From Chthonomonadaceae bacterium (GTDB taxonomy: Bacteria; Armatimonadota; Chthonomonadetes; Chthonomonadales; Chthonomonadaceae), in contig DATGJU010000429.1 of assembly GCA_035295045.1 (NCBI GenBank), forward strand, positions 1 to 39,629: a DNA stretch of 39,629 nt, read 5' to 3'. The notes beneath the pieces are model-generated. The model was not told the DNA's origin. It was given only the letters and a program-made list of their open reading frames with translations, and ran no database searches. A program made the translations under genes and the position numbers. Shown piece after piece: positions 6,857 through 36,913 of this stretch (position 1 is its first letter; every line of letters begins with the position of its first letter).

Positions 6857-8368
6857 ATGGCCTCAAACCTGCTCACCGACAACCAGGTCCGCCAGTTTAT
6901 CGCGCACGGCTATCTCGTGCTGGACTGCGGCCTCCCGCCGGATGTGCACGCCAGGATCTACGATAAGCTCCAATGGATCCTCCACGAGGAGGGCAATCCC
7001 GGCAACAATATCCTGCCGGCCGTGCCGGAAATGCGGCAGGTCTTGGATAGCCCCGTCGTCCGCGGCGCGCTCACCAGCGTCCTCGGCAGAGACTACGTGC
7101 TTCACCCGCACCGGTTCGTCCACAATATCGAGCCGGCCGAGCGCGTGGACGGCGATCTGAAGGTGGGCCAGGGCTCCGCAAGCTTCGTCGGATGGCACCA
7201 GGACAGCCACAGCCCGCTCTCGCGCCCGCGCCACCACCTGCCGCGCTACGCCATGATCCTTTACTACCCGCAGGACACTCCGCCGGAGATGGGACCGACG
7301 CAGCTCATCCCCGCTAGCCAGTATAACGCATCGATCTCAGATGCGGACCGGGCTCGCGGTTTCCAGGCGCCGGGGCCGGCGGGGACATGCGTCCTCGTCC
7401 ACTTCGACATCGCGCACGGGGGCTCCATGAATCTAGGAGACCGGACGCGCCACATGGCCAAATTCGTCTTCGCGCGCGTCGAGGAGCCGGCCGCGCCCTC
7501 CTGGGACTGCCGCGGCGACGAATGGAGCGCCGGCGCCGCATCGCCAGCTGGCGCGGACCATAGCGGCGCGTGGAGCGAGGGCTGGCCGAAGGCAGTCTGG
7601 CGCTATGTCTGGCAATGGATGTGCGGTCGGGCGGAAGCTCCTCTGCGGGAGGATGACGGCCGCGCCCCGGAGGATCTCATCGCCGGGTGGGATGCCGGCT
7701 CCGATGCGCGCCTGGACGCGATCTATCGCCTGGCGGCCATGCGCGGTCGCGCGGCCGTCGCGCTCTGCGCCGATCTGGCGGGGCGCATGGAGAGCCGATG
7801 GGCGGAATCGGCCGTCGTGATGGAGAATGCAGCCTACGCGCTCGCCGCGATGGGCGCGCCTGCCGTCCCGGCGCTCGTCGAGCTGCTGGACGCGCCATCG
7901 GATTGGGTCCAGATCAACGCGCTCTTCGCCCTGGGCGAGATCGGCCGGTCGGAGGCCGCCGCCGTCCCGACGGTCATCCGGAAGCTCCGGAGTCGGTCGC
8001 ACGCGGTCGTCCGGACCGCGCTGGACGCGATCGGGCAGATGCAGGCGGCCCACGAGGCGCTGCCGGAAATCCGCCGGCTCCTGTTCGAGAGCGATCCTGT
8101 CTGGCAGGAGCCGCTCTACCGCCGCTGGACCGGCGAGAACCAGGTCCGTTTCAACGCGATCATGGCGCTACTGCGCGTTCCGGCGCCGTCGTCCGCGGTC
8201 ATCGAAACCGCGATCGCCGCGCTCGACGACCCGTGTGGCTACGTCGGCGGCATCGGAGTCGAAATCCTCCTGCGCCACCGAACGGCCACCGGCATGGACG
8301 CCGCCATCGCGTTCCTGCAGGCGCATCGCTGGGATAACTCGCTAAACCGCGGCATCCGCACGTACTGA
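6857..8368 (+). CDS. PhyH-family dioxygenase fused to C-terminal HEAT/PBS-lyase-like repeats
   Basis: N-terminal half has PhyH-like motifs: FIAHGYLVLD, FVGWHQDSH (H-x-D), PTQLIPASQ, LVHFDIAHGG. C-terminal half has repeated helical HEAT-like units (AAYALAAMGAPAVPALVELLDAPSDWVQINALFALGEIGRSEAAAVPTVIRKLRSRSHAVVRTALDAIGQM...). Confidence 0.9.
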   Translation: MASNLLTDNQVRQFIAHGYLVLDCGLPPDVHARIYDKLQWILHEEGNPGNNILPAVPEMRQVLDSPVVRGALTSVLGRDYVLHPHRFVHNIEPAERVDGDLKVGQGSASFVGWHQDSHSPLSRPRHHLPRYAMILYYPQDTPPEMGPTQLIPASQYNASISDADRARGFQAPGPAGTCVLVHFDIAHGGSMNLGDRTRHMAKFVFARVEEPAAPSWDCRGDEWSAGAASPAGADHSGAWSEGWPKAVWRYVWQWMCGRAEAPLREDDGRAPEDLIAGWDAGSDARLDAIYRLAAMRGRAAVALCADLAGRMESRWAESAVVMENAAYALAAMGAPAVPALVELLDAPSDWVQINALFALGEIGRSEAAAVPTVIRKLRSRSHAVVRTALDAIGQMQAAHEALPEIRRLLFESDPVWQEPLYRRWTGENQVRFNAIMALLRVPAPSSAVIETAIAALDDPCGYVGGIGVEILLRHRTATGMDAAIAFLQAHRWDNSLNRGIRTY

Positions 8369-17411: not shown

Positions 17412-19469
17412 TCAATCAGCCAAAACCGGCAGGAAGATCGCGAATCGCGCGCCGGCGCCTTGCTCGCCAACCTCCCGTATTGCGCCCCGGTGTGCGTCAA
17501 TGATACCCTTCACGATTGAGAGACCGAGGCCCATGCCCTTGACTCGCGACGAAAAAAACGGCTGGAAGATCCGCTCCTTGTGCTCCACGGCGACACCCGG
17601 CCCGGTATCCTCCAGCACGATCTCCACGTAGGGATTGAGCCGCGAGAGGCGCGCGATCCGGGGCAGCCGCGCCGCGGCGGCCATGCCCGTGCGGACGGTC
17701 AGCGTGCCGCCCTCCGGCATGAAGCTGATCGCGTTCTCTATCAGCTCGGACAGCGCGCGCTTCAGCTTCTCCCCATCCAAGGGGAGCGCCGGCAGGTTCG
17801 TGCCGTAATCTTCTATCAGCGCGACGCTGGACCTGCGCGGCATCGTCTCGTTGACCGATTCCCGCACCATCTGGTTGACATCCGTCACACGGATTTTGAG
17901 CTGCGTCGCCATTACGAAGTCACGGAATTCGCGCAGGATGTCCTCCAGCTTGAACACGCCGCGCTCGACGCTCTCGACCAGCGACGCGATCTCGACGATG
18001 CGCTTCGATGCCTCCGCGGGATCGGCCTCGGCGGCGCCCTTAAGCAGGTAGCGCAGCTCGTTCAAGTCCCCCTTGATCGCGAAGGTCCGATTGCCGATCA
18101 TGTGGGCGGATTTCGCGGAGAGCTCGCCCCATGCGGCCATCCGTTCGGAGCGGACGAGGCGGCTGAGGCTCCGGGCGTTGTCCACGGCGTTTCCGAGCTG
18201 GCTGGCAATGGTGCGCAGGACGCGTTCGTCGCTCTCGGTGAATCGCGCGCGAAACCATGCTGGCGCACTGCGCGGGCGCGACGCGCGGATGACGCCGAGA
18301 ATGCGCTCGCCGCCGGGAATCGGTACCGCGAGGAAGGCGCTCAGCTCGTCCGGCGAGAACTCGGGGTACCGGCCGCGCCACCGCGGATCGTCGCGCGGAT
18401 CGTCGAGGCGGATGGCTTCGCCGGTCGCTGCCACGCTGCCCGTGAGGCCCTCGCCGAGCCGGTAGGAGGCCACGCCGATCTGGCTGCGCAGCGAGCCGCT
18501 GGACGCCTGAAGGACGAGCGACTCGCCAGGCTCGTCGAGCAGGAAGACGGAACAGGCCTCGCATCGGAGGGCAAGCGCGGTCACGTTCACCACCCGGCGC
18601 GCCAGCGCGTTCACCTCCGTGGTGGCGGAGAGCTCCAGCCCGATCTCCACGAGGAGCTGCTCGCGCTGGCGAAACTCCTCAAAAGCAAGCGATGCCGCGA
18701 TTCCGTTTGCGAACGTGGTCAGCATGGCGACGTCGTTTGCAGAGAACGCGTCGAGAGTATCGCTGTCCACGTTGAGCACGCCCCGTACGCGCCCCTCTGC
18801 GTCGAAGAAGGGCACGGCGATCTCGCTCATCACGTCGTCGAATGAGAGGATGTAGTGCGGATCGGCACGCACGTCCGGGCAGCAGTACGGCTCGCCCGTG
18901 ATGGCCACGTAGCCCGTGATCCCGCGCTCCGTGCGGTTGTGCGGCTTGAGGCGCAGGAGACGCCGCTCGGAGGTCCAGCCGTCTCCCGCCGTTTCGCCCA
19001 CGACCAGCTCTCCCGTTTCCTGCTCGATCCGCGCGAGAAAGGCGCGCTTGCCCCGGGTTGCGCGCAGTGCCTCCTCGAGCGCCTCGTGGATAAAATTGGG
19101 AGAGTGGCGCTGCGTGAGCGCGAGGGTGAGCAGGCGGTTCGCAGTCTCCAGGAATGCACTGCTCGCGTCGCGCGGCCCGCCGGCAAAGCCGGCGCCGCGC
19201 CGCCGGGAGGTCTTGCTCCGGCCGGCCGGACTTGAGCCCGGTGGATCGGGTCGGTGCGTCCGGAGCCCGCTGGCGGCCCGCGGGTACAGGGGCTCGGGCC
19301 GGTCGGGCGGCGCCTCCGGCCCGGCAGCCGCGTCCGCATCGCGCGCTCCCTGGCGCCGCGCTGGCGGCTGCTGCCCGAGCGGGGAGCGAGTACCGCCGCC
19401 GCCATCCTCGTCGCGCACGCCTTTTTCGTGTGACGGGGCCGGCTCGCCTGCGGACGTTCCATCCATCAT
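17412..19469 (-). CDS. Cytoplasmic sensor histidine kinase: disordered N-terminus, two GAF domains, HisKA-like H-box, HATPase_c
   Basis: No TM segment. The first ~110 aa are Pro/Arg/Gly-rich. Two GAF-like blocks: GYVAITGEPYCCPDV...EIAVPFFDAEGRVRGVLNV and ACSVFLLDEPGESLVL...FLAVPIPGGERILGVIRA. H-box ELSAKSAHMIGNRTFAIKG, N-box LSELIENAISF, G-boxes LEDTGPGV and GMGLGLSIV. Confidence 0.9.
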   Translation of the reverse strand: MMDGTSAGEPAPSHEKGVRDEDGGGGTRSPLGQQPPARRQGARDADAAAGPEAPPDRPEPLYPRAASGLRTHRPDPPGSSPAGRSKTSRRRGAGFAGGPRDASSAFLETANRLLTLALTQRHSPNFIHEALEEALRATRGKRAFLARIEQETGELVVGETAGDGWTSERRLLRLKPHNRTERGITGYVAITGEPYCCPDVRADPHYILSFDDVMSEIAVPFFDAEGRVRGVLNVDSDTLDAFSANDVAMLTTFANGIAASLAFEEFRQREQLLVEIGLELSATTEVNALARRVVNVTALALRCEACSVFLLDEPGESLVLQASSGSLRSQIGVASYRLGEGLTGSVAATGEAIRLDDPRDDPRWRGRYPEFSPDELSAFLAVPIPGGERILGVIRASRPRSAPAWFRARFTESDERVLRTIASQLGNAVDNARSLSRLVRSERMAAWGELSAKSAHMIGNRTFAIKGDLNELRYLLKGAAEADPAEASKRIVEIASLVESVERGVFKLEDILREFRDFVMATQLKIRVTDVNQMVRESVNETMPRRSSVALIEDYGTNLPALPLDGEKLKRALSELIENAISFMPEGGTLTVRTGMAAAARLPRIARLSRLNPYVEIVLEDTGPGVAVEHKERIFQPFFSSRVKGMGLGLSIVKGIIDAHRGAIREVGEQGAGARFAIFLPVLAD

Positions 19470-24183: not shown

Positions 24184-26442
24184 ATGCAGATAAGTCGCAG
24201 AGCTCTTCTCGCTGTGGGCGCAGGCGCATTACTGGTCCCGGAGGTCGCGGTCGCCCGGCGTGCGCCCGCGGCCGGCGCGCCGGGGCGGAAGCGCGCGCTC
24301 ATTATCGCCATCGACAAGTACGCCCGCGAGAACGACCCGCACTCGGCGCGCGACCTGCACTGCCAGCGGGATGCCATGCTCCTCCAAAAAGTGCTGGAGT
24401 TCCACGGCTTCGCCGTGACCGCCAGGCGTAAACCGGAGGAGACACAAGGGCAGGGGATCAAGGATGCCCTGGCCGGCTTCCTGGCCGATACTCAGCCCAA
24501 CGACGTGCTGTTTGTACACTACTCCGGCCATGGCTCGCAGGTGGAGGATCCCGGCGACCCTCTGGGCTTCGATCAGACCCTGGTTCCCTCCGACTACAAG
24601 TCGACGAACGACGGCGCCAATGACGTTCCGGACAAGGTGCTTGCCGGAATCCTTCGGGCGGGTCTATCGAAAGTCAGGCCGGCCGCCTTCCTCCTCACAT
24701 TCGATTCCTGCCACTCGGGCACCATAACGCGCGACAGCGGCGTCGGGGAGCGGCGCGGGTTCGAGCGGGCCATCGCGAAGGGACTGCGCCGCGCGCTCGA
24801 CATGAAGCCCGGCCTCTACGCATCGGAGGCGATCGCGCAGCAGGGCTTCACCGCAATCTCCGCGTGCCGAAGCGCCGAGTCGGCGGTCGAGATCGACGAC
24901 GACGGCGAGCAGATGGGGGCGCTCAGCTACGCGCTGGTCAAGGCGCTTGGCGCCGCAACCGAGCTGACGACGTACCGCGACCTATTCGAAAACGTCACCT
25001 GCATCATGCGAGCAAAGGGCACGAGCCAGACGCCGCAGATGGAGGGTACGCCCGACCAGAAGCTGTTTTCCGCCGGCACGATCCAGCCGCGATCCTATAT
25101 CAAGATAGAGCGCGTCGACGACAAGGCCGTTCTGAAAGCCGGAAAGCTGATGGGAATCGAGGCCGGGACCAAGCTGGCTGTCTTCGCGCCGGACGCCGAC
25201 CTCAAGACCGGCAAATCGGTCGAAGGGGTGGTGAAGAACCCCGGCCTGACGGTGTCGGAGATCGAGGCGCCCGGCATGACCGTGACGGAGCTGAATGGCT
25301 GCCGCGCGGTCGTCACGGCGCTGGCATACCATGAGACGCCGCTGAAAGTCAGCGTCGCCCGGATCAGGCAGCATCACGGGTATGCGGCCATCGCGAAGAC
25401 GCTCGACGATATGAAGTCGCGCGGGCTGGTCGTGACGACAGAGGCGGACAAGGGCTGGGACATCCAGATTTGCCCCGCGGCCGAGGCGTGCAAAGGCGGA
25501 TTGCAGGGCGCGCAGCGCGGCGCCGGCGAGCGATGGGACGTCGAAGTGGCGCCCGTGCCGGGATCGGGCGTCGCGGAGCCGCGCAAGATGACGCTCGTGG
25601 GCGCGGACCCGTCGCTCAAGGAGAGCGTGATACTGCTTCGGGGTGATTCGTCGCTCCTCGCGTGCCAGGTCCGGCGCGTCACGCCAGACGGTAACAAGAA
25701 GGTCTCGCTCACCTCGCTTGCCGGCGACGATACGCTTCCAAGGAATATCGAGATCGCCCTGACGCGCGAGACGCGCCATCGCCTGATGTCGGGCCTGGTA
25801 GAAAAGCCGGGCGACGCCGACATCCATATCGAGATGCGGCTGTTCGAGTGCAACACGCAGCCCGACCTTGATCATCCGGGCAAAGTGGTGTACGTGTCCG
25901 ACAAGGGCAAGGGACCGCTTGCGTCCAGCCGGGACGCGATGCCGACGCTCAAGCTGGGCTCGCACTTCCGCATCGAGATGCGCAACACCGGCACAGTCAA
26001 GGCGCACGTGGCGCTGGTGGATCTCAATCCGCAGGGCGGAATCGGCCCGATGTGGCCCAATCCCGAAGCCGCGTCGATCGACAACGACTCGAACGTGATC
26101 CTTCCGGCCGAGCAGGGTAAGGAGGCGCCCTGGATCCCGCTCACCATGGGCAAGGGCGAGCCGTACAAACTCTGGACGGTCAGCGAACCGGTGGGGGTCG
26201 AGACGCTCGTCGCCATCGCCACGCGCGAATTTGCGGACTTCGGCCCGCTGTTCGACCTGCCGGCCGTGGATCGCGGCATGAGCGGCAAGCGCGGGCCGGG
26301 TCCGGAGATCAACTCGCCACTCGGCAAGCTCTTTGCGAACTACACGAAGCGCGACGCCGACTCCGACAGCGAGGTACCGAATAACTGGACCGCAAGCGCT
26401 TGCCACGTCGCGTTTGCGGCGCCGGAGCGGCCGGCGCAGTGA
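24184..26442 (+). CDS. Tat-signal caspase-fold protease (peptidase C14) with C-terminal DUF4384-like domain (paralogue B)
   Basis: ATG 24184 after GGGAGA (the track start at 24178 is TTG). MQISRRALLAVGAGALLVPEVAVA. Catalytic His in VHYSGHGSQ and catalytic Cys in TFDSCHSGT. GSHFRIEMRNTGTVKAHVALVDLNPQGGIGPMWP looks like DUF4384. Colinear with paralogue A over its full length. Confidence 0.93.
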   Translation: MQISRRALLAVGAGALLVPEVAVARRAPAAGAPGRKRALIIAIDKYARENDPHSARDLHCQRDAMLLQKVLEFHGFAVTARRKPEETQGQGIKDALAGFLADTQPNDVLFVHYSGHGSQVEDPGDPLGFDQTLVPSDYKSTNDGANDVPDKVLAGILRAGLSKVRPAAFLLTFDSCHSGTITRDSGVGERRGFERAIAKGLRRALDMKPGLYASEAIAQQGFTAISACRSAESAVEIDDDGEQMGALSYALVKALGAATELTTYRDLFENVTCIMRAKGTSQTPQMEGTPDQKLFSAGTIQPRSYIKIERVDDKAVLKAGKLMGIEAGTKLAVFAPDADLKTGKSVEGVVKNPGLTVSEIEAPGMTVTELNGCRAVVTALAYHETPLKVSVARIRQHHGYAAIAKTLDDMKSRGLVVTTEADKGWDIQICPAAEACKGGLQGAQRGAGERWDVEVAPVPGSGVAEPRKMTLVGADPSLKESVILLRGDSSLLACQVRRVTPDGNKKVSLTSLAGDDTLPRNIEIALTRETRHRLMSGLVEKPGDADIHIEMRLFECNTQPDLDHPGKVVYVSDKGKGPLASSRDAMPTLKLGSHFRIEMRNTGTVKAHVALVDLNPQGGIGPMWPNPEAASIDNDSNVILPAEQGKEAPWIPLTMGKGEPYKLWTVSEPVGVETLVAIATREFADFGPLFDLPAVDRGMSGKRGPGPEINSPLGKLFANYTKRDADSDSEVPNNWTASACHVAFAAPERPAQ

Positions 26443-26459
26443 GTTTGGAGCGTCCGCGA

Positions 26460-28169
26460 ATGGAGGATGGGAACGGCAGACCGGAGGCGGGCCACGATAA
26501 GACGGAACGCGGCGAGAGCCACGGCCCGGACGGGCTTGGCCCTGTCTCCGCCGCCGGCGCTGCGGCGCCGGAGAGCGGCACGCCGGCGGTCGGCGACGGC
26601 GCGCCGCCGGCATCCCAGGCCCGCCATGGCGGCGTACATACGCCGCCGCCGCATGCCGCGGAACGCCCGGCGACTCCGGCCGGGTCGGGCGATGCATCGC
26701 CGGCCCCTGCCGCAGATGCCGAGGCGAGCGCGGCCGCACCGTCGCCTGCCGCGGTACAGCCTGACGACCTCGATACCACCGCAATTGCCGGCGAATCGCG
26801 GTCCCGCAGCCGCCGCGCGCACCGGAGCAATCGGCAGCCGGAAACGGTCGCCGAGGCGCGGAGGCGCCGCCTGGACGAGGTGATCGACGATGTCAAGTGG
26901 GCGGTTGTCGTCATCTGCAGCCTTCTCGCCCTCAATTTGCTCCTTGAACAGACTGAGCTTGCGGACCGCCTGAAGGTGCTCGTCTTCAACGCCATGCAGC
27001 GGCGGCTTCCCTCAGGCGCGCGTGCGCCGGTCCCGCTCGTCCAGGTAGTTGACATTTCATCGCTTCCCGGAACGATCGGCCACAACCTGACCGATCGCAG
27101 GACGCTGGCAAGGCTCATCGAGAAGATCGCCTCGCAGCATCCGATCGCGATCGGGCTGGACCTCGACTGCTCGCCGCAACTACCGTCGAACGCGGACGAG
27201 CTGCCGACCATGACCGCCGACGAGGTGCAGTTCCTGGATACTTGCCTCGCTCTGTCGAAGAGCACGCCCGTCTTTCTCGGCGCCGATCGCACCGCGACGG
27301 GAAGCTCGAGCCAATGGCTCTACGATGCGCCGTACACGGACATGGCCGCGGCGCTGCGCACTCCAACGGATGAGCGGTTCACGATGTGGCGGTCGATCCG
27401 CGTCAAAAGCGCCGATCGCGAGCTGCTGTCCATGAGCGGAAAGCTGGCAAGCGCGGTGCCGGCTCCCCTGCGGCCGCCGACATACGCGGTCCCTCGCGCG
27501 CTGAAATGGGCGCTTACGCCGGAGGTGGATCGCGATCTGTCGCCGGCGATCCGGGTCGAGGAGTTTCTGGTCGATTACAGCCAGATCGAGGCGCTGGGTG
27601 AGCGCTCGATAAGCATCGATGACGTCATGGCCGCGCCCGCCGGGGATAGTCGCCTCCGCGACCGGCTGGTGCTCATCGGCAACAGCAGCAGCGAGACCAC
27701 AGACAAGATGGTCGTCCCGGATCGGACGCGCGCATTTCCCGGCGTGCTGGTTCACGCCTCCGCCGCCTACACGATGCTTCAATCGCCGCTCTTTCAGCCG
27801 ACGCTTCCGGGCCGCATCGCCGGCGACCTGCTGCTCGGCCTGCTCGGGATCGCGATCGTCGTCGGGCGGCGCCTGTGGCACATTCATCGTGGGCTCGACG
27901 AGCCGTCCGAGGCGCATATAAACACAATCCACAATGTGACGACCGCGGTCATCTTCGTCTCCGTCATCGTGGCAGGAATCTTTCTCGTCCAGAAGACCCA
28001 CGTTATTTGGGACGACTTTCCGCTCGTCGTAGTCGGGCTCCTGTTCCATCGGCCAGTCGAACGCCTCTTCAAACACTTGTCTGGTAAGATTGTGCGCCAG
28101 GCCTCGCACGGGACCGGCGCGCCAGCGCGGCCGGCGCACGGCGTCGGAAGCGGGAAGGGCGAAACATGA
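26460..28169 (+). CDS. CHASE2-domain membrane protein without any output domain
   Basis: ATG 26460 lies 17 nt after the upstream stop. About 140-aa Ala/Pro/Gly/Arg-rich N-terminus, then TM (WAVVVICSLLALNLLL). CHASE2-like landmarks: LVQVVDISSL...TDRRTLARLIEKIASQHPIAIGLDLDCS, then RLVLIGNSSSETTDKMVVP...FPGVLVHASAAYTML. Three C-terminal TM helices. The protein ends ~40 aa later with no kinase, cyclase or GGDEF domain. Confidence 0.85.
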   Translation: MEDGNGRPEAGHDKTERGESHGPDGLGPVSAAGAAAPESGTPAVGDGAPPASQARHGGVHTPPPHAAERPATPAGSGDASPAPAADAEASAAAPSPAAVQPDDLDTTAIAGESRSRSRRAHRSNRQPETVAEARRRRLDEVIDDVKWAVVVICSLLALNLLLEQTELADRLKVLVFNAMQRRLPSGARAPVPLVQVVDISSLPGTIGHNLTDRRTLARLIEKIASQHPIAIGLDLDCSPQLPSNADELPTMTADEVQFLDTCLALSKSTPVFLGADRTATGSSSQWLYDAPYTDMAAALRTPTDERFTMWRSIRVKSADRELLSMSGKLASAVPAPLRPPTYAVPRALKWALTPEVDRDLSPAIRVEEFLVDYSQIEALGERSISIDDVMAAPAGDSRLRDRLVLIGNSSSETTDKMVVPDRTRAFPGVLVHASAAYTMLQSPLFQPTLPGRIAGDLLLGLLGIAIVVGRRLWHIHRGLDEPSEAHINTIHNVTTAVIFVSVIVAGIFLVQKTHVIWDDFPLVVVGLLFHRPVERLFKHLSGKIVRQASHGTGAPARPAHGVGSGKGET

Positions 28170-29131
28170 GGAACCTGCTTGGCGCTCTCGCGGCCACGAT
28201 CACGGTGGCCCTGGCAAATCCAGCCGGCGCGTCGGCGCAGACCAAAGCGGCGGTCATCGTCGCCACGGTCCACTCCATTGTCGGCAAGGTCTACTGGCGG
28301 CCCACGATGGCCAGGCCGGAAGTGCTGCTCGACCCTGTGAAGGATCGGTCCCGGCCGATCTGCTTCGGGGAGTGGGTCAAAGCATCGCCAGGATGCAAGC
28401 TCAACGTATGGGTGCCGCATGGCAGCACGGCGATTGTCCAGACGATTGCGACTCCAGCGAATGAGACCGCGCAATGGAGGACGTTTGCCCGAAGGCCGAC
28501 CGCGGCGCAGCTCGCCCTCCTGAAAATCATAAGCGAGGCGTCGCTGCTCGGCGGCCGGCCGCGGGACGCCGGGCCGCTCTATGCGCCGGCGGACCGCTCG
28601 GTGCAGCGACTCGACAAGCTTGAGATTCGCTGGACGCCGACGCCGGCCGGCGTAACGACGCGTCTCGCGCTTACGGACGATACGACGGGCGCCTCGATCC
28701 TGGCCCCGCAATCCGTGGACGGCGCGGTTGGACGGGCTCCGTCCGAGCCATTCGTGGCCGCGCTCCGCGCTCTGCCGGAACGGGCGCGGCGGCATCGCTT
28801 GTCACTCTCCATCCGGACGAATGGCCGGGAGTTCGCGGTCCATTTCACCCTGATGGATGCCGTCGCCGAAGCCGCGCTCGCGGCGCAGCTCGCCCAGACG
28901 GACTCGCTGCCGGCAGGTTCGCGGCGACTGGGCCGCGTCGGTGAGCTGGCCGCAGCCGGCCTTCTGAACGAGGTCGCGGCCGAGTGCGAGGCCGCGCTCG
29001 CGGAAGAGCCGGGCAATGAGACGGTCCGCGTGACGGCGATCGTTGCCGACGAGCAGATTGGCTACGCCGAGCGAGCCCTGGAGCTGAGAAAGAGCCTTCC
29101 GCCGGGAACCAGCGTGCCGGACATACCGTGA
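28166..29131 (+). CDS. Secreted protein: FecR-like beta N-domain, middle domain, helical TPR-like C-terminus; hypothetical
   Basis: Its ATG overlaps the CHASE2 stop (ATGA 28166-28169). Signal peptide MRNLLGALAATITVALANPAGASAQ. GKVYWRPTMARPEVLLDPVKDRSRPICFGEWVKASPGCKLNVWVPHGSTAIV resembles FecR-type sensor folds. The C-terminal segment is helical (AAECEAALAEEPGNETVRVTAIVADEQIGYAERALELRK). Confidence 0.8.
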   Translation: MRNLLGALAATITVALANPAGASAQTKAAVIVATVHSIVGKVYWRPTMARPEVLLDPVKDRSRPICFGEWVKASPGCKLNVWVPHGSTAIVQTIATPANETAQWRTFARRPTAAQLALLKIISEASLLGGRPRDAGPLYAPADRSVQRLDKLEIRWTPTPAGVTTRLALTDDTTGASILAPQSVDGAVGRAPSEPFVAALRALPERARRHRLSLSIRTNGREFAVHFTLMDAVAEAALAAQLAQTDSLPAGSRRLGRVGELAAAGLLNEVAAECEAALAEEPGNETVRVTAIVADEQIGYAERALELRKSLPPGTSVPDIP

Positions 29132-29221: not shown

Positions 29222-32200
29222 CTACTTCTTCGCCGGCAGGCGGGCCAATTGAAAGTCGTTCTGCAGGTTCAGCCGGCGCGTGATGGGCCGCTGCCGATGG
29301 TCGGTCCGCGCGTCCACCTCCCGCGCGACGTAGGCATTCAGGCCGGTGACCGTCACGGCGCCGTCGGGGCCTGCCGCCTTGCCGCCGAGGCCGTCCAGCA
29401 GGCACTGCGTGAAGATGCCGTGCGCGCGGTCCTCGGCGGCTGTCTCGATTCCTCGCGAAGCGGCGATCACCGTCGCGCCGCTGCCATGCTCCACCGTGAA
29501 GAACTGCTCCTGCAGAATGTCGAACGCGCTCTCCTTGCCCCTGTCCGAGTTGACGAGCCGGGTGCCGCGCCCGTTCGAGCCGCCTGCCGCCACGGGCTTT
29601 GCCGATCGGTCGACCTCGCCGGCATGGCAGGTATCCATCATCAGCAGCTTCTGCCGCGCGTCTACGCCGTCCAGCAGTCCTTCGATCGCATCGTAGGAGA
29701 GACCCTTGGCGGCTGGCGCTCCGAAGTCCACGTCGTGCGTTGCGAAGTAGTAGTCGAGCTTGCCGTCCAGAAGCCCGTGGCCTGCGATGAAGACCACAAC
29801 GGTGTCGTCCGGCTTCGCAGCCGCCAGGAACTCCCGCGCGGCGACGATGTTGTCGTGTGTCGCCTGGTCGTTGAGCAGCACCTTGCGATGCGGCGGCCCG
29901 GAGTACCCGCCTGCGCGAGAAGAATCGCAGAACAGGTCCGCCACGGAGGTCGCGTCGACGTCCGCCGACTTCAGGCGATAGGCGTCCCCGGCTGCATATT
30001 GCGAGATGCCGACCGAAAGGACATAGAGCTCGCGGTGCGGCTCCGCGGTGCAGCTCACAACCGCTTCACGCGCGAGGCTCTCCGTGCCCTGGTCGTTGAC
30101 CGCGGACACCTGCAGGCGGTTCACGCCGGCGGCCAGCGGCACGACGATCTCGCCGCTCCATCGTCTCGCGCTCTGTGCCGAGATGTCCATGCCGGCCGAG
30201 CCATGGTTTGCTCGCCCCGCTGCCGTAAACGTCGCCGGAACCCCGTTCGCAACGACGCGAATTCGCGAGATAGGGTGGCCGTCGTCGGAGATCGATACCC
30301 GCAGGCGCGCGTCTCGCTCCGGAGTGGATAGCGAGAGCGCCCTGGTATCGAGCGTGAGGTCCGGCACGTCGACCGCGCCGCCGACCTGCTGCTCGGAGAC
30401 GCGCGCCAGCTCCAGCCGCTTTTCGTGCGCGGTCCGATAGGTGGCGAGCAGGCCTGTCTCCGCCACACCCATCGACTCGAGCACGCGATCGGGCCGATTG
30501 TACCGCAAGTCGAACTGCTCCAGCGGATAGGCGCGGCCCGCCAGCCGGAAGGCGACGCCGCCGTAGGCCCCCATCGAGGCCAGATAGTCGCCCGCCGGCG
30601 TGGCCGCCATATACTGGTCGTCGTCCACCCCGATGAGACGGACCATCTCGCGGCCCGTGGCGGCGTCCCATAGGCGGGCCTGGGCGTCCGCGCCCGCCGT
30701 CGCGATACGACGGCCGGAGGGGTCGAACGCGGCGGCAAAGAGGGAGTCGCCGGAGCCGCGGACCGTGCGGACGAGGCTGAAAGTCTCGGCGTCGAAGACC
30801 CGGGCCGCGCCGTCCGAGCACGCCGCGACGAGCTGGCCGCCGTCCGGTCGCCAGGCCACGCGAATCCCGTGCGCATCACCAAGCGGGACGCTGCGGATGC
30901 GCTCACCGGACGGATACTTCCAGACGGTTATCTGGCCGCCGAATATCGACGCGCTCGCCGCGGCGATGCGCGCTCCATCCGGGCTTATTGCGAGCGAGCG
31001 CGTATCCGGCGGCGCTTCCCACTCCGCGACGCGCGCTCCGGTTTCGACGGACCAGACGCGTATCGCGCTCGGCTTCTGCAAGTCCTTGCTGTCAATCGTC
31101 GCCAGCGTCTTCCCATCCGCCCCGAACTCGATCACGTCCGCCGAGTCCTTCGGCAGGTGGAGCGTGCGCACGAAGCCGCCGGTGTCGCTGTCCCAAATCT
31201 CGATGCTGTCGCCCTCGGTCCCGTCGGCGATGAAGCTCTCCAGGTTCCGGTGAGCGGTCGCAATTCGGGAGCCGTCGCGCGACCAGGCCACGGAGTTGAG
31301 TCCGCCGCCCCGGGAATAGCCCTCGACGACCTTGCCGCTCTCGAAGTCGATGCGAAGCAGGCTCCAGGCGTTGCCGACGAGCACCTGCCGGCCGGTCGGG
31401 TCGAAGGCGATCGAGGCGATAGCCTCGAACCGGCCGCCAAGCGGAAGCTGCCGCGTCTTGTTCGTGGCGGCGTCCCAGAGCGTCACGATGCCGCCGCCGC
31501 CGTACGGCGGGCTGGCGACCGCCGCGATCGCCTGGCCGTCCGCGCGCACAGCCAGGTTCTGCGCCGGGATGCTGGCCTGCCGGATCTGCCTGCCGCTCTT
31601 CGGATCCCACCACCGCACGGTCCGGTCCGCGCCGGAGCTGATCACCGAAACGCCGTCCGGCGCGAACGTTACGGCGGCCACGGCGCCGGCATGGCCCTTG
31701 AGCACCGCGACCGGCTGTCGCGTCGCCACGCTCCACAGGCGGACGGTCCCGTCCGTCCCTCCTGCCGCGAGCATCGTGCCGTCACGGTTGAAGGAGACTC
31801 GGTAGACCGCGAACTGGTTCGCGGACGGGAAGTCAAAGCTCGCCGACAGATCTCCCGAGGAGGTGTTCCACACGTCGATGTGGGAGCCGCCGCCGGATGC
31901 CGCGAGCAGGCGACCGTCCGGACTGAACGCCAGTCCGGATCCGAAATAGAAGCTCGATCCCTTGAAGCTGCGGATCGTCGCTCCGGTTGCGGCGCTGTAG
32001 AGCGTCACTTGCTCGCTTTCCGAGAGGGTCGCGATGATGTCGCCGGCCTGTGTGAACGCCACGGCGTCGATGCTGTTGGCCGCCGGCGACCAGACGCGCG
32101 CCTGCTGGCCGGTCGCGACATTCCAGAGCGTCACCGTCGTGCTGGGGGTCTTCGGGTCGATCCGCCCGGTATAGCCGTTGACCATCCACTGCGCGTCCGC

Positions 32201-34198
32201 GCTGAAGGCGGAGGAGTGCGCGCGCTGACGGAGAATCTCCCGCGGCTCGACACCCAGGGTGCGGACCGCCGCGCCCGTCCGCGCGGACCAGATTCGCGTC
32301 AGGCCATATTGTCCCTTGAGCGGTCCTGCGAACCTTTCCCCGGTCGGGTCGAACGCGAGCATGTGTCCGAATCTGCCGGGACTGCCCCCGTTGTCGGCGC
32401 ATTCCGTGACCGTAACGGACGGACGGGCGGTCTGGAGATTCCACAGCCGCACGCTGCCGCCACGGTCTGCGACGGCGAGCGTGTCGCCCTGCGGCGCGAA
32501 AGCCACCGTCGAGCTGACGCGCGCGTGCTGCCCGAGGTCCGCGAGGAGCGTTCCGGATGCCGTATCCCAGGCCTTCAGCTCCGAGATGCCGCCGCCGCCG
32601 CCTCCCGCGATCAGCACGCGTCCTCCCTGCACGAAGGCCAGAGCGTCGACGCTGTGCTCGACACCGTGAAGCTGTCGCTTCCGCCTCGACTTCAGGTCCC
32701 ACAGGTCCAGGCTCTGTTCGGCCTTCGTGATTCCCTCATGCCGCACCGCCAGCGCGGACCCGTCCGGCGAGATCGCGAGGGCGACGGCGGCCCGAGCCCC
32801 GCTTCCGATCTCGGCCGCGGGCCGCATGTCGGCGATCGTCCAGCAGCGGATGTGGCCCGGCTTGTCCTCGAACCGCTTGCCGCACCCGGCGATCAGAGTG
32901 TCGCCGGCCGGCGTGAACACCAGCGCGTTGATCTCATCGCCCTGGCTGGAGAGCTCGCCGGTACGCCTCCTGGCGGCCAGGTCCCACACCTCGATCGCGC
33001 CCTTCGCGCTGGCTACCGCAAGCGTCTTGCCGTCGGCCGTCACGGCGCAGGGCCCCCGATAGACGCCGTCTGCCGCCAGTGCGGCGGTCTGCTGGCCGGT
33101 CGCGATATCCCACAGACGGAGCGACTGTCCGGCCGTAATGAGCATGTCCCGACCCGGCACGACCGCCATGTCGTCGCAGTCGGTATTGATCTGGAACAGA
33201 GGCTGCAGGCTGGCGGTCGACCAGATGCGGATGCTGCTTTCACGCGTCATGAGCCGCGTGCCGTCTTTGCTGTACAGCACCTGCCGCACGCCGCGGGAGA
33301 AGCCGCCCAGCGTCCGGATAGACCGGAGGCTGTGAACGTCCCAGAATACCACCTCGTGCGGCCCCTGGTCCTTGCCGGACGCCACCGCCATTTCGTCGCC
33401 GGAAGGGTGGAGCGCCACGAAGTTGATGCCGTCCGCGTGGCCGGTCTGAGGAACGAGCACGGGTGTGGCCGGGTCCTCGGCAATCGCGCCGCCGGTAAGC
33501 CGCTGGGAATTCGCGCGTGACTTGCCGGCCTCTTGCGCCAGCGCCAGCGCCTGGTCCTTCAGCGTGTTGGCCTCCGCGAACCGGCTCGCGCGCGCCAGCA
33601 CATCGGAGGCGCGCAGGAGCAGCGCGCCCTCGAACCCGGGGTCCCTGTCCTTGGCGCGCGCGGCCGCTGCGCCGCGCTTGAAGGCGTCCACCGCGGCGTC
33701 GACGTAGCCGAGCCGCTCCAGGACTCTCGAGGCGTCCAGGACCACGGATACGCGTATGGGCGCCGTATCGAGCGTCACGGCGAGGGCGATGGCGCGATTG
33801 AGACGCTTCCGCGCATCCTCCTTCGGCGTTGCGGCGTCGGCGGCCCAGAGTATCTGGACCTTGAAGCTCTCGCGCAATAACAGCTCCATGCCCTGCGCAT
33901 CGCGCACCACTTTGAGCTTTCGGTCGGCGAGCTGTGCGGCCTCGTCATACCGCTTATCGTGTAGGTCGAGCTCGATGAGGCCGAACACGGGGGTCGCATC
34001 CTCCGGAACGAGCTCGGAGGCTTGGCTGAGCAGGTCGCGCCCGGCATTGAGGTCCTTCGCCTTCAGGGCGGCGGTCGCCCTCTGGATCAGGTCGGCCTCG
34101 CGCTTGTGCGCGTCGTCCTGCGGTGGTTGAGCCGCCACCGGCGCGGCGATGAGAATGGCGAGCGCCGCGGCTGGGGCTGCGCGGAGGATCGAGATCAT
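29222..34198 (-). CDS. Giant exported protein (1658 aa): signal peptide, TPR-like helical region, ~1000 aa of WD40 repeats, Ig-like segment, C-terminal caspase (peptidase C14) domain
   Basis: Signal peptide MISILRAAPAAALAILIAAPVAAQ. Helical N-region to ~aa 230. Dozens of WD-like blades (e.g. SVRLWNL, TVRLWSV, TVRWWDP, IRVWSV, ARLWDA, IEVWDL). Caspase domain at ~aa 1395-1658 (nt ~29225-30016) with VVFIAGHGL (His) and LLMMDTCHAGE (Cys). Confidence 0.95.
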   Translation of the reverse strand: MISILRAAPAAALAILIAAPVAAQPPQDDAHKREADLIQRATAALKAKDLNAGRDLLSQASELVPEDATPVFGLIELDLHDKRYDEAAQLADRKLKVVRDAQGMELLLRESFKVQILWAADAATPKEDARKRLNRAIALAVTLDTAPIRVSVVLDASRVLERLGYVDAAVDAFKRGAAAARAKDRDPGFEGALLLRASDVLARASRFAEANTLKDQALALAQEAGKSRANSQRLTGGAIAEDPATPVLVPQTGHADGINFVALHPSGDEMAVASGKDQGPHEVVFWDVHSLRSIRTLGGFSRGVRQVLYSKDGTRLMTRESSIRIWSTASLQPLFQINTDCDDMAVVPGRDMLITAGQSLRLWDIATGQQTAALAADGVYRGPCAVTADGKTLAVASAKGAIEVWDLAARRRTGELSSQGDEINALVFTPAGDTLIAGCGKRFEDKPGHIRCWTIADMRPAAEIGSGARAAVALAISPDGSALAVRHEGITKAEQSLDLWDLKSRRKRQLHGVEHSVDALAFVQGGRVLIAGGGGGGISELKAWDTASGTLLADLGQHARVSSTVAFAPQGDTLAVADRGGSVRLWNLQTARPSVTVTECADNGGSPGRFGHMLAFDPTGERFAGPLKGQYGLTRIWSARTGAAVRTLGVEPREILRQRAHSSAFSADAQWMVNGYTGRIDPKTPSTTVTLWNVATGQQARVWSPAANSIDAVAFTQAGDIIATLSESEQVTLYSAATGATIRSFKGSSFYFGSGLAFSPDGRLLAASGGGSHIDVWNTSSGDLSASFDFPSANQFAVYRVSFNRDGTMLAAGGTDGTVRLWSVATRQPVAVLKGHAGAVAAVTFAPDGVSVISSGADRTVRWWDPKSGRQIRQASIPAQNLAVRADGQAIAAVASPPYGGGGIVTLWDAATNKTRQLPLGGRFEAIASIAFDPTGRQVLVGNAWSLLRIDFESGKVVEGYSRGGGLNSVAWSRDGSRIATAHRNLESFIADGTEGDSIEIWDSDTGGFVRTLHLPKDSADVIEFGADGKTLATIDSKDLQKPSAIRVWSVETGARVAEWEAPPDTRSLAISPDGARIAAASASIFGGQITVWKYPSGERIRSVPLGDAHGIRVAWRPDGGQLVAACSDGAARVFDAETFSLVRTVRGSGDSLFAAAFDPSGRRIATAGADAQARLWDAATGREMVRLIGVDDDQYMAATPAGDYLASMGAYGGVAFRLAGRAYPLEQFDLRYNRPDRVLESMGVAETGLLATYRTAHEKRLELARVSEQQVGGAVDVPDLTLDTRALSLSTPERDARLRVSISDDGHPISRIRVVANGVPATFTAAGRANHGSAGMDISAQSARRWSGEIVVPLAAGVNRLQVSAVNDQGTESLAREAVVSCTAEPHRELYVLSVGISQYAAGDAYRLKSADVDATSVADLFCDSSRAGGYSGPPHRKVLLNDQATHDNIVAAREFLAAAKPDDTVVVFIAGHGLLDGKLDYYFATHDVDFGAPAAKGLSYDAIEGLLDGVDARQKLLMMDTCHAGEVDRSAKPVAAGGSNGRGTRLVNSDRGKESAFDILQEQFFTVEHGSGATVIAASRGIETAAEDRAHGIFTQCLLDGLGGKAAGPDGAVTVTGLNAYVAREVDARTDHRQRPITRRLNLQNDFQLARLPAKK

Positions 34199-34879: not shown

Positions 34880-36913
34880 ATGCGCATAGAACGCTGGTTC
34901 TGGCTGCCCATATTCAGCGTCCTCTCGCTCATACTGCATTTCTCGGTGGTATTCGTTACGCGCGGCCTGGGCCTTGGGGGACCGATGCGGACGCCGGAAG
35001 CGCCGAGCATCGAGGTAACGTTCGAGGCGCCGGCGACGCCTCCGCAGCCAAAGCGTATTGAGCCGTCGCCGAAGCCGAAGCGCGAGCCTGTTCACGCTCC
35101 GCGACTCGCGGTCCACACGACTCCGGCGCCCGTGCCCGCGCGCCACGAGATCACACACGCCGTGGTCCACGCGGCGCGAAGCCATCCGGTCGCCGCGGCG
35201 CTGCCTGCGCGCGTGAGTCACGAGTCGCCCGCGCCGAGAGAGGCGCGAGTCGCCCCCGTCCGCCGCGCCTCGGCGCCTGCGGTGGCCGCGAGCGACTCCG
35301 CCAGCCCGTCCCGTCCCGTCACGCGCGCCTCGGAGACTACGCCGGACTCCCCGCGAAATGAGGTGCGCTATCCCGCGGCCGAGAACGTAAGCCTTACCGA
35401 CATTCGCCGGCCGGCTGGCGGCGGCTCCGTAATGCACGACCGCGCCGCGAATCCGCTGGGCGACGGCATGCCGAACGATGCTCCCGAGATGGGCGTTCGC
35501 ACTACCATCGTAACTGCCGCGAGGATCAAGAAGAATAAGCGGGACCTGCGGCTGGCCGCGGGCTCCGCCAGGCAGGAGTCGACGACGCGCGCAAGCGAGA
35601 TTTCCGCGGATAGCCCGAGCAATGACGTGGCATACGCGTCCGGTGGAAGCGGCGGCCCGGCAGCGGATACGGGTCCCCACGACTCGGCGGCCAATGCGTC
35701 GGTGCTCCACGTCACCAGCGATAACCCGCTAGGCGACGCGATCCCGGACGATCGACCGGGCGGCGGGGCCGTGGCCTCGGCCGCGCCCATGGCGGGGATA
35801 CATCGCGGCGGCTCCGGCGGTGGCCCGATCGTCGGCTCCGGCGTCCCCGGGCCATCAAACGTTCGCGGCCGTGCGGGCTTCTACGCGCCGGATTCGCCCG
35901 CCGGCAACGGCGGCTACGGCGGCAGCGGCGGACCGGCCGTCGCGAGCGACGGGCCGGCGCCCGGAGGCGCTGGGCGCGGCAGAGCGTTCCATGGGCCGGG
36001 CAGCAACCCGCTCGGCGACGCCGTTCCCGAAGATAAGCCCGGCGCGGGGCCGGGTTCGGGCGGCGGACTAGGCGGCCCGGGGGCGGGCCAGGCGCTTGCC
36101 GGCCTTCGACGCGGCGGCGCGCCCAGGCTGGGAGCGGCGGCGCCCCACCCGGAGTTGAGAGGGCGCGGCGGCGGCGGCGCGCCGAACCGCGGACCGGACC
36201 GGCCCGGCGTCCAGACTGTAGCCTCCAATGCCCGCGTGCAGGACTCCGGCGACAGCGATCCGCCGCCGACCCATCATACGGCATCGGCTACGAAGATCAA
36301 CAACGTCGGCAGGATACTGCGCGATGCGATTGGAGCGCCGGGGCGGGGCGCCTTGTTCGAGCTGCGGCCCACCAACGGCAGTGACACGCCGGTTCACATC
36401 GTCTACGCGATGGACACGTCGAAGAGCATGGCGGACGGGGCGAAGATCCTGAAGGCGAAGGAGGCGCTGAAGAAGGCGCTTGGGGAGCTTCGGCCGACCG
36501 ATACCTTCAATATCATCACCTTCACGCGCGAGACGGCGCTCTTCCAGGACGACGCCGTACCGGCAACTTCGGACAACATCACCTACGCGCGCAACTACGT
36601 CGACGACATACGCCTCGGCCCAGGTACCAACATCTCCGGCGCCATGGAGCTCGCCCTCCGAATGCGCGGCGTAACGCACATCATGGTTATGTCGGACGGA
36701 GAGCCGAACGGCGGGATCGAGGACTTCGCCAAGCTGCGCAGGTTCATCCGTGAGCACAACACCCACAACGTCAACATCACGACCTTCGCGTTGGGCCTTG
36801 GCGAGAAGTTCCCCGGAATGAAGCTCCTGAAGGCGGTTGCGGACGAGAACGGCGGCACCTACGACTACGTCAACATGAACAAGATATCGAGGCCGCCCGG
36901 CGTGATCCAGTAG
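34880..36913 (+). CDS. Membrane-anchored von Willebrand factor A (vWA) protein with TonB-like N-terminal anchor, Pro-rich spacer and three degenerate internal repeats
   Basis: SD GAGGAAA before the ATG. TM helix WFWLPIFSVLSLILHFSVVFV. Pro/Lys/Glu spacer PATPPQPKRIEPSPKPKREP. Repeats are marked by NPLGD at nt 35450, 35723 and 36005. vWA domain ~nt 36392-36874 with MIDAS motif DTSKSM (36413-36427) and later MSDGEPN. Confidence 0.9.
   Translation: MRIERWFWLPIFSVLSLILHFSVVFVTRGLGLGGPMRTPEAPSIEVTFEAPATPPQPKRIEPSPKPKREPVHAPRLAVHTTPAPVPARHEITHAVVHAARSHPVAAALPARVSHESPAPREARVAPVRRASAPAVAASDSASPSRPVTRASETTPDSPRNEVRYPAAENVSLTDIRRPAGGGSVMHDRAANPLGDGMPNDAPEMGVRTTIVTAARIKKNKRDLRLAAGSARQESTTRASEISADSPSNDVAYASGGSGGPAADTGPHDSAANASVLHVTSDNPLGDAIPDDRPGGGAVASAAPMAGIHRGGSGGGPIVGSGVPGPSNVRGRAGFYAPDSPAGNGGYGGSGGPAVASDGPAPGGAGRGRAFHGPGSNPLGDAVPEDKPGAGPGSGGGLGGPGAGQALAGLRRGGAPRLGAAAPHPELRGRGGGGAPNRGPDRPGVQTVASNARVQDSGDSDPPPTHHTASATKINNVGRILRDAIGAPGRGALFELRPTNGSDTPVHIVYAMDTSKSMADGAKILKAKEALKKALGELRPTDTFNIITFTRETALFQDDAVPATSDNITYARNYVDDIRLGPGTNISGAMELALRMRGVTHIMVMSDGEPNGGIEDFAKLRRFIREHNTHNVNITTFALGLGEKFPGMKLLKAVADENGGTYDYVNMNKISRPPGVIQ

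Follow-up and report, generated by a model that had tools for sequence, protein, structure and literature searches.

Discussion of bacterial homologues of caspases mostly treats them as proteases of the cytoplasm that serve cell death or defence, and few of them have been assayed. A 39,629-nucleotide (nt) contig of a Chthonomonadaceae bacterium (GenBank assembly GCA_035295045.1, contig DATGJU010000429.1; this whole stretch is called the window here) raises the question of what such a protease might do outside the cytoplasm. A minus-strand open reading frame (ORF) at 29222..34198, which starts with ATG, encodes a protein of 1658 amino acids (aa), hereafter the WD40-caspase, whose predicted signal peptide, WD40 propellers, linker and immunoglobulin (Ig)-like module are followed by a C-terminal caspase-fold (C14) domain. 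We place a probability of about 0.6 on the reading that this is a multidomain cysteine protease which is exported, most likely to the periplasm or envelope, and carries out regulated limited proteolysis together with recurrent partners.

Long spurious ORFs arise in high-G+C DNA and an ORF of 883 aa lies antisense to this one, and the coding character was therefore checked. The G+C content per codon position is 0.69/0.52/0.86, the pattern expected for DNA of 68% G+C, and the protein-level homology of the 1658-aa product is strong. The antisense ORF (30869..33520, plus strand) shows the mirrored values 0.86/0.55/0.65 and was rejected as a gene, being an antisense shadow. The WD40-caspase ORF, found exactly where an earlier note on this DNA had placed it, is a real gene. 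Its ATG is the first in-frame start codon downstream of the preceding stop. A database protein of 277 aa (P0298) is identical over aa 1-156 and then diverges into Ser/Ala/Arg-rich low-complexity sequence; we do not count it as a homologue and read it as coming from a mis-assembled, fold-back or chimeric contig of the same soil sample. Since P0298 begins at the same ATG, it supports the chosen start as an independent gene call.

The protease domain lies at the extreme C-terminus and is intact, as the earlier note had it. Over aa 1394-1649 the Pfam model PF00656 reaches 47.4 bits (cut-off 21.4; E 2.6e-12), and the catalytic residues His1474 and Cys1524 are invariant in family alignments of 26 and 8 sequences. 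We modelled the C-terminal 472 aa with AlphaFold2 (AF2) from the 26-sequence alignment, with a predicted local distance difference test score (pLDDT) of 80.8 and a predicted template modelling score (pTM) of 0.80. The model presents, in this order, the last propeller strands, the helical linker, a beta-sandwich and a full caspase fold. Searched with Foldseek, the protease ranks MALT1 first (E 3e-9), followed by TbMCA2, AtMC4 and AtMC9 and then by caspase-9, with a probability of 1.00; the caspase domain alone gave no matches against the PDB sequences.

Two acidic positions line the Arg/Lys-selecting S1 pocket in metacaspases and MALT1. The corresponding candidates, Asp1415 (in 'KDA') and Asp1522 (in D-x-C), are invariant in the family, and in a caspase-only profile Asp1415 aligns with the 'ND' of the metacaspase CxND motif and Asp1522 with the 'DSCHSG' of AtMC4 and Yca1. 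Because both residues are kept, Arg or Lys, not Asp, is predicted at P1, and the WD40-caspase would have a basic P1 specificity like that of orthocaspases, metacaspases and paracaspases. Past the catalytic Cys the model contains a disordered loop with Arg and Lys residues (fragment residues 343-383), whose length varies in the family and in which R...RG recurs. Beyond the loop, some 90 ordered residues in helices and strands (fragment residues 369-467) complete the fold; they may be p10-like, and orthocaspases in the strict sense consist of p20 with no p10. By analogy, the disordered loop is a likely candidate for an autoprocessing site or inter-subunit linker.

The full-length protein is of little use as a search query, since its matches are flooded by generic WD40 proteins at 22–32% identity, and the family was revealed only by searching with the C-terminal 472 aa alone. 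This search returned 28 proteins at 27–45% identity, most of them over 90–99% of the module and several with WD40 repeats upstream; family members align over ~98% of the module at 33–46% identity. When one genome of each GTDB species was scanned, at least 598 relatives sharing the caspase region were confirmed. The genome loci analysed here are the best 80 of these, all of which match query residues ~2-465. A hidden Markov model (HMM) search of 1.84 billion cluster representatives (50% identity clusters) gave at least 150 matches with the module. The best 150 representatives all score above 700 bits and are 584–2230 aa long, and in 146 of them the module sits at the very C-terminal end or close to it. 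Across the genome loci and these representatives, nearly all proteins measure 1000–2200 aa and run from a signal peptide and WD40 blades to a terminal caspase. About 110 columns of the A1 profile are WD40, which makes its count of 23,242 at E 1e-30 unusable as a family size and explains why its matches in the PDB were all WD40 proteins.

Members of the family belong mainly to Bacteroidota and also to Ignavibacteria, Isosphaeraceae, Pyrinomonadaceae, Armatimonadetes and Chthoniobacterales, with one deltaproteobacterial metagenome-assembled genome. Genes with an intact 5' end number 73 among the 80 extracted loci; their products mostly measure 1007–1250 aa, and a few ~1370–1716 aa. They begin with a short signal peptide, pass directly into '...VVQTGHS...' blades and end ~145 aa beyond the catalytic Cys; the distance from this Cys to the C-terminus has a family median of 147 aa, compared with 134 aa in the WD40-caspase. 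The scan of metagenomes yielded no close orthologue, the best locus (L081) reaching 30% identity. Taken together, the combination signal peptide-WD40-linker-Ig-caspase defines a large, cross-phylum family without a name. Five Bacteroidota loci (L039, L046, L047, L048 and L074) hold tandem arrays of four to five family ORFs, which suggests lineage-specific expansion, and the opposite domain order is also exported in one protein, P0025, which reads signal peptide-caspase-...-WD40.

The layout is thus a common one that in silico work had noticed before, and the window protein adds one member to the family. The rarity implied in the earlier note is not supported, as the same layout occurs in the genomes of at least 80 species and in at least 150 cluster representatives, and signal-peptide WD40-metacaspases beside a CHASE2 gene are already drawn in a published genomic island (PMC3914696). 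That note had also allowed that the architecture might prove both common and characterised. It is common; experimental characterisation was not found, the literature yielding no enzymology, structure or genetics for the signal peptide-WD40-C-terminal caspase architecture.

Export of the WD40-caspase is likely, as judged from the sequence of its N-terminus and from the family pattern. The predicted Sec-type signal peptide consists of MISILR (with Arg6), a 16-residue Ala/Leu/Ile core at aa 7-22 and a VAA|Q site at aa 21-23/24, followed by acidic and polar residues at +1 to +6. By heuristic, the charge of the n-region, the h-region and the small residues at -3 and -1 are those of a Sec/signal peptidase I substrate. 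The hydropathy scan found one further hydrophobic window in the 1658-aa protein, at aa 136, which is borderline over the threshold. In the family, an N-terminus resembling a signal peptide is present in 113 of 136 Met-starting representatives compared with 2 of 148 internal control segments, and a crude test for a hydrophobic N-terminus was passed by 67 of the 73 complete loci products. Most homologue signal peptides are short and classical and end in AQ, SQ or AQQ right before the first blade. The signal peptide claimed in the earlier note is supported by these observations.

The same segment might instead be an uncleaved signal anchor. In that case the inner membrane would hold the protein by its N-terminus while all its domains face the periplasm, and it would act there as a protease or sensor bound to the membrane, next to the CHASE2 protein described below. 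We consider this unlikely. The hydrophobic core is indeed long (~16–17 residues, mean hydropathy ~2), and a lipobox-like LGGC in one homologue (L062) indicates that membrane tethering occurs in the family; moreover, Asplund-Samuelsson et al. could not separate N-terminal transmembrane helices from signal peptides in prokaryotic metacaspases (PMC3501461). On the other hand, the core of the WD40-caspase is followed by a good VAA|Q site and an acidic and polar +1 to +6 region, and most homologues have short classical signal peptides.

The central part of the protein is made of propellers. With the WD40 model PF00400 the protein reaches 162.5 bits (cut-off 27), several propeller-level Pfam models are also above their cut-offs, and the WD40 and beta-propeller matches span ~aa 260-1210, far over threshold. 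We took the 12 blades with the best models to build a blade HMM, iterated it on the same protein and counted 21 WD40 blades at aa 258-1189, consistent with three 7-bladed propellers. The region opens with PVLVPQTGH at aa 246-254, a family hallmark (P-x-[LIV]-V-x-Q-x-G-H) that the homologues share. An AF2 model of aa 236-1215 has a mean pLDDT of 72.8 and is confident from ~aa 660 on, with propeller 3 mostly above 85, and the Foldseek matches of the region are tandem 7-bladed proteins (2YMU, Aip1, Apaf-1 and Utp proteins). The earlier estimate of roughly 1000 aa of WD-like blades in several propellers therefore stands, at 21 blades over ~930 aa. Most family members have room for two propellers, and the WD40-caspase has three. 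The Leeuwenhoekiella and Winogradskyella versions, at ~1715 aa, have room for about four.

Between the signal peptide and the start motif of the first propeller, the WD40-caspase carries 222 extra residues (aa 24-245), a region missing in most family members, whose mature N-terminus opens straight at the propeller. The region that the earlier note described as ~200 aa of helical repeats is present, while its assignment to TPR is weakly supported, as all the TPR models remain below their cut-offs (TPR_19 20.2 of 25 bits, TPR_16 19.4 of 32.7 and TPR_12 14.9 of 30.1). A search of aa 24-245 in 5.8 billion proteins found no homologue besides its own fragment P0298. This orphan region and the third propeller are lineage-specific elaborations.

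A family-specific linker joins the propellers to the Ig-like module. It comprises a post-propeller strand segment, a conserved motif and three helices (the helices at fragment residues 40-87 of the AF2 model). The motif, AFRLAGRAYPLEQFDLRYNRPDRV (YPxEQFDLRxNRPD), had been described as recurring within the protein; an internal repeat can be ruled out, as the motif is present in a single copy, and it is conserved between homologues instead. The consensus among the latter is YPFEQFDLRLNRPDxVLE, a regular expression for the EQFDL motif matches 120 of the 148 best family representatives, and the spacing from the motif to the catalytic Cys is conserved in the family. The Ig-like stretch of the earlier note is a confident beta-sandwich in the AF2 model, with 7–8 strands (fragment residues 94-197, pLDDT 85–96), and Foldseek matches it to FN3-like modules such as 3pdd. 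The linker and Ig part together (aa 1187-1400, nt ~29999-30640) match no Pfam family at E<=1, though they are conserved across phyla, which makes the module a candidate for a new domain definition.

In the orthocaspases characterised or catalogued so far, the accessory domains usually lie C-terminal to p20, and the WD40 examples, TeMC9 and the Gloeobacter paralogues, follow this rule (PMC5756287). The order signal peptide-helical region-propellers-linker-Ig-caspase obtained by domain mapping agrees with the earlier note and is reversed with respect to these proteins. The cyanobacterial WD40 orthocaspases (Trichodesmium TeMC9, Gloeobacter) and MaOC1 share with the WD40-caspase the C14 fold, the His/Cys dyad, an Arg/Lys specificity that is predicted or shown, and the fusion to WD40. 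However, their p20 is N-terminal and they are treated as cytoplasmic, whereas the WD40-caspase has a signal peptide, places a linker and an Ig module before the protease and shows, in the model, a C-terminal half that may be p10-like. In MaOC1 the activation step is autoprocessing (PMC5756287).

A catalogue of prokaryotic caspase homologues from 2012 lists WD40 as the commonest partner domain, in 10.9% of the sequences, took many N-terminal helices as signal peptides and proposed extracellular roles; it also describes a Trichodesmium protein in which a caspase is fused to CHASE2 (PMC3501461). In Psychroflexus torquis ATCC 700755, genomic island 15 spans 35 kb and includes four large WD40-metacaspases, marked with asterisks for signal peptides, and a CHASE2 gene (PMC3914696). 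Compared by description, the likeness to the window, and to 16 of the 80 related loci, lies in large signal-peptide WD40-metacaspases clustered with CHASE2. The island, however, belongs to a member of the Bacteroidota, has four paralogues and has been described in silico, while the source of the window is a soil organism of high G+C, whose protein adds a third propeller and the N-terminal helical region.

Three eukaryotic or enzymatic parallels help to frame the domain order. MALT1, the best structural match of the protease, also has an Ig-like domain directly N-terminal to its caspase and an acidic S1 pocket, whose D-x-C arrangement gives Arg specificity. With 15–18% identity, it differs in being a cytoplasmic eukaryotic signalling protease that contains a death domain and ends in an Ig3 domain, activated through CARMA-BCL10 filaments, with no propellers and no export. 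The apoptosome of Apaf-1 and caspase-9 also couples tandem WD40 propellers, as ligand sensor, to a caspase, and Apaf-1 is among the propeller matches; but Apaf-1 contains a CARD besides its NB-ARC ATPase and recruits a separate caspase in the cytoplasm, whereas the WD40-caspase has no NTPase and is exported with its protease fused. In the prolyl oligopeptidase/DPP-IV family and in tricorn, a propeller controls substrate access, and some members are periplasmic or extracellular. Their beta-propeller is likewise N-terminal to, or packed on, the catalytic domain, although these enzymes are serine peptidases, their fold is unrelated, and one propeller alone does the gating.

We characterized the genomic context of the family by clustering the ORFs of the best 80 related loci. 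In 16 of the 80, the WD40-caspase adjoins a gene pair that encodes a signal-peptide protein of ~265 aa and a membrane protein of ~390 aa; 8 of the 14 members of the latter cluster match Pfam CHASE2 (best E 4.4e-10). These loci belong to Cyclobacteriaceae, Reichenbachiella, Ekhidna and other Bacteroidota and to two Ignavibacteria. A VWA protein lies directly upstream of the WD40-caspase in 8 of the 80, and a BamB-like PQQ propeller protein (by Pfam), a TPR histidine kinase with a response regulator, a TPR-CHAT protein and small outer-membrane beta-barrel-like proteins also recur beside or near family members, the TPR assignments of the kinase and the CHAT protein being judged from sequence alone. 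Loci of the type of L008, L024, L025, L045 and L055 read histidine kinase (with a TPR-like N-terminus)-response regulator-BamB-like protein-WD40-caspase-265-aa signal-peptide protein-CHASE2. This conserved gene order, seen in loci of Cyclobacteriaceae type, looks like one regulated envelope module.

Genes of the same kinds lie beside the WD40-caspase in the window. Two caspase-DUF4384 paralogues, each with an N-terminal C14 domain and a weak C-terminal DUF4384 match, are divergently transcribed, and both carry twin-arginine translocation (Tat) motifs; with the WD40-caspase counted, three exported caspase homologues lie inside 13 kb. Next comes a membrane protein of the CHASE2 type in which no output domain is recognisable, its listed start overlapping the end of the upstream Tat caspase gene, and the gene of a 321-aa signal-peptide protein overlaps the CHASE2 stop (ATGA) and ends 90 nt from the WD40-caspase stop in convergent orientation. 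Because the gene ends overlap, the Tat caspase, CHASE2 and 321-aa genes probably form one operon. Translated from its listed TTG, the CHASE2 protein has a long Ala/Pro-rich N-terminus, and the real start may be further downstream. On the other side of the WD40-caspase, a VWA protein of 677 aa is encoded divergently. Ahead of its VWA domain lies a Pro/Gly/Ala-rich region of ~450 aa, in which one motif occurs three times (NPLGDGMPNDAPE / NPLGDAIPDDRPG / NPLGDAVPEDKPG).

For CHASE2 and VWA, the correspondence between these genes and the recurrent neighbours in Bacteroidota lies at the level of shared Pfam family and not of direct homology. The CHASE2, VWA and 321-aa proteins of the window escaped HMMs made from the neighbour clusters in Bacteroidota, and profile-profile comparison was not significant, with P values of 0.023–0.026 for CHASE2 and 0.24 for the 321-aa protein against cluster c1; the correspondence of this last pair is positional only. 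In the metagenome locus L081, a signal peptide-WD40-caspase stands beside a full-length homologue of the window caspase-DUF4384 protein (29% identity, E 2e-59), and a protein of 329 aa occupies the same position as the 321-aa protein, with no similarity between the two.

In the regulated-proteolysis reading that we prefer, the propellers, and in the window protein also the N-terminal helical region, would form a platform for the recognition of partners or substrates, and the linker and Ig module would serve as a fixed spacer holding the protease beside this platform. The flexible Arg-containing loop could be the site of autoprocessing or activation, by analogy with MaOC1 and metacaspases. The role of the enzyme would then be the limited, regulated cleavage of envelope proteins rather than bulk digestion, with the co-located output-less CHASE2 membrane protein as a probable working partner, and likewise the VWA and caspase-DUF4384 proteins. 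The export context, with Tat motifs on both neighbouring caspases and a signal peptide on the 321-aa protein, speaks for this reading. The suggestion of the earlier note that proteolysis outside the cytoplasm is gated by a ligand or by oligomerisation is plausible, as a putative mode of control; its one piece of indirect support is that family members recur beside an output-less CHASE2 sensor protein.

A more specific version of the mechanism is a long shot. An extracytoplasmic caspase signalling module may be imagined in which the CHASE2 sensor recruits or activates the propeller-tethered caspase, which in turn cleaves the co-encoded Tat caspases, in a cascade, or the VWA protein. Under this proposal the CHASE2 protein would lack a cytoplasmic transmitter because the output is periplasmic proteolysis, and the module, if real, would do in the periplasm what apoptosome or paracaspase signalling does elsewhere.

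Several observations weigh against our preferred reading of the WD40-caspase as a partnered envelope protease. The signal peptide call rests on a hydrophobicity heuristic and the family pattern; the Shine-Dalgarno sequence before the ATG is weak, and a GTG at codon 21 is the sole alternative start that would drop the signal peptide. The S1-pocket assignment derives from weak profile matches to solved metacaspases (E 0.002–0.03). Propeller 1 was modelled with patchy, low confidence and its closure is not confidently modelled, and the WD40-caspase sequence is present in one DNA run only (a soil metagenome). Finally, CHASE2 is operonic with the Tat caspase and convergent with the WD40-caspase; given this orientation, its link to the WD40-caspase in particular is indirect.

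Release of the protein to the surface or the medium, as an offensive or nutritional protease, is likewise improbable. Secreted effectors are known among the proteases of clan CD, the gingipains for example, and an exported sulfatase-PA14 protein is also encoded in the window. Extracellular action on neighbouring cells has been proposed for prokaryotic metacaspases (PMC3501461) and an interaction with algae for the P. torquis cluster (PMC3914696). However, no secretion-system gene or sorting domain was detected; with the caspase at the extreme C-terminus, the Bacteroidota members are left without the C-terminal domain of the type IX secretion system. Moreover, ~930 aa of propeller would be an unusual load for a digestive enzyme, and the neighbours are membrane or periplasmic proteins of sensor type.

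We regard it as very unlikely that the signal peptide is a start-codon artefact and the protein a cytoplasmic, apoptosis-like or anti-phage effector of the Apaf-1/STAND-caspase type. WD40 joined to a caspase is a hallmark of apoptosome-like and conflict systems, the GTG at codon 21 would provide the required start, another part of the window holds a gene for a STAND kinase, and the best named caspase model is NF047832 ('caspase, EACC1-associated type'). The score for this model is, however, 84.4 bits against a cut-off of 140, so that the WD40-caspase falls outside this subfamily. It lacks an NTPase, a death fold and an EACC1 region, none of the window neighbours was recognised as an EACC1-type component, and PADLOC returned generic domain-level matches in the window, with no defence-system assignment. 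Signal peptides are, furthermore, conserved family-wide, and the neighbouring caspases carry Tat signals. Last, although pseudo-orthocaspases with substituted His or Cys are common in bacteria (PMC6426788), it is scarcely credible that the caspase domain is a non-catalytic scaffold in a pure binding platform, since His1474 and Cys1524, the GHG and DTCHAGE motifs around them and both Asp residues of the pocket are present and invariant in the aligned family.

For the window itself, the value of these results lies mainly in correct annotation; their wider value is in the family and its recurrent CHASE2, VWA and caspase partners. The family forms a very large cross-phylum set of caspase homologues that appear built for the cell envelope, with a signal peptide, two to four propellers, the linker/Ig module and a C-terminal protease. 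Should the inferred partnership be true, it would amount to a proteolytic signalling route outside the cytoplasm, and, as members exist in cultured Bacteroidota genomes (Leeuwenhoekiella, Winogradskyella and Chryseosolibacter, with L. nanhaiensis, W. thalassocola DSM 15363 and C. histidini as examples), the partnership is testable there.

Table 1 Features of the WD40-caspase, listed from its N-terminus, and of other genes in the 39,629-nt window.
Feature	Residues (aa)	Position (nt)	Strand	Evidence or remark
Sec-type signal peptide (predicted)	1-23	34130..34198	-	hydropathy scan, -3/-1 rule
Orphan helical, weakly TPR-like region	24-245	33464..34129	-	sub-threshold Pfam TPR matches
Propeller 1, blades from aa 258, 310, 343, 384, 423, 471, 517	246-560	32519..33463	-	blade HMM
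Propeller 2, blades from aa 564, 611, 660, 710, 754, 798, 840	561-877	31568..32518	-	blade HMM, AF2, Pfam
Propeller 3, blades from aa 879, 927, 967, 1020, 1066, 1111, 1153	878-1189	30632..31567	-	blade HMM, AF2, Foldseek
Family-specific linker	1190-1279	30362..30631	-	conserved in 25 homologues
Conserved linker motif	1216-1239	30482..30553	-	single copy
Ig/FN3-like beta-sandwich	~1280-1383	30050..30361	-	AF2, Foldseek
C14 caspase-fold domain	1384-1658	29225..30049	-	PF00656, Foldseek
Catalytic His (FIAGHG)	1474	29777-29779	-
Catalytic Cys (MDTCHAG)	1524	29627-29629	-
Disordered Arg/Lys-containing loop	1529-1569	29492..29614	-	pLDDT <50
Caspase-DUF4384 protein, 754 aa		24178..26442	+	Tat motif SRRALL
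Second caspase-DUF4384 paralogue, 792 aa		21662..24040	-	Tat motif SRRTFV
CHASE2 membrane protein		26400..28169	+	PF05226 E 7.5e-18
321-aa signal-peptide protein		28166..29131	+	family not recognised
VWA protein, N-terminal hydrophobic segment, C-terminal VWA		34880..36913	+	VWA_3 E 7.8e-10
Ser/Thr protein kinase + STAND-type AAA ATPase + TPR, 949 aa		10421-13270	-
Sulfatase with C-terminal PA14 domain		4740-6812	+
PhyH-like dioxygenase with HEAT repeats		6857-8368	+
Double-GAF histidine kinase		17412-19469	-

Among the other genes in Table 1, the 949-aa kinase-ATPase protein is of conflict or signalling type and stands positionally apart from the caspases; the sulfatase, the dioxygenase and the double-GAF histidine kinase complete the list. 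The gene content of the window looks like that of a large-genome soil bacterium.

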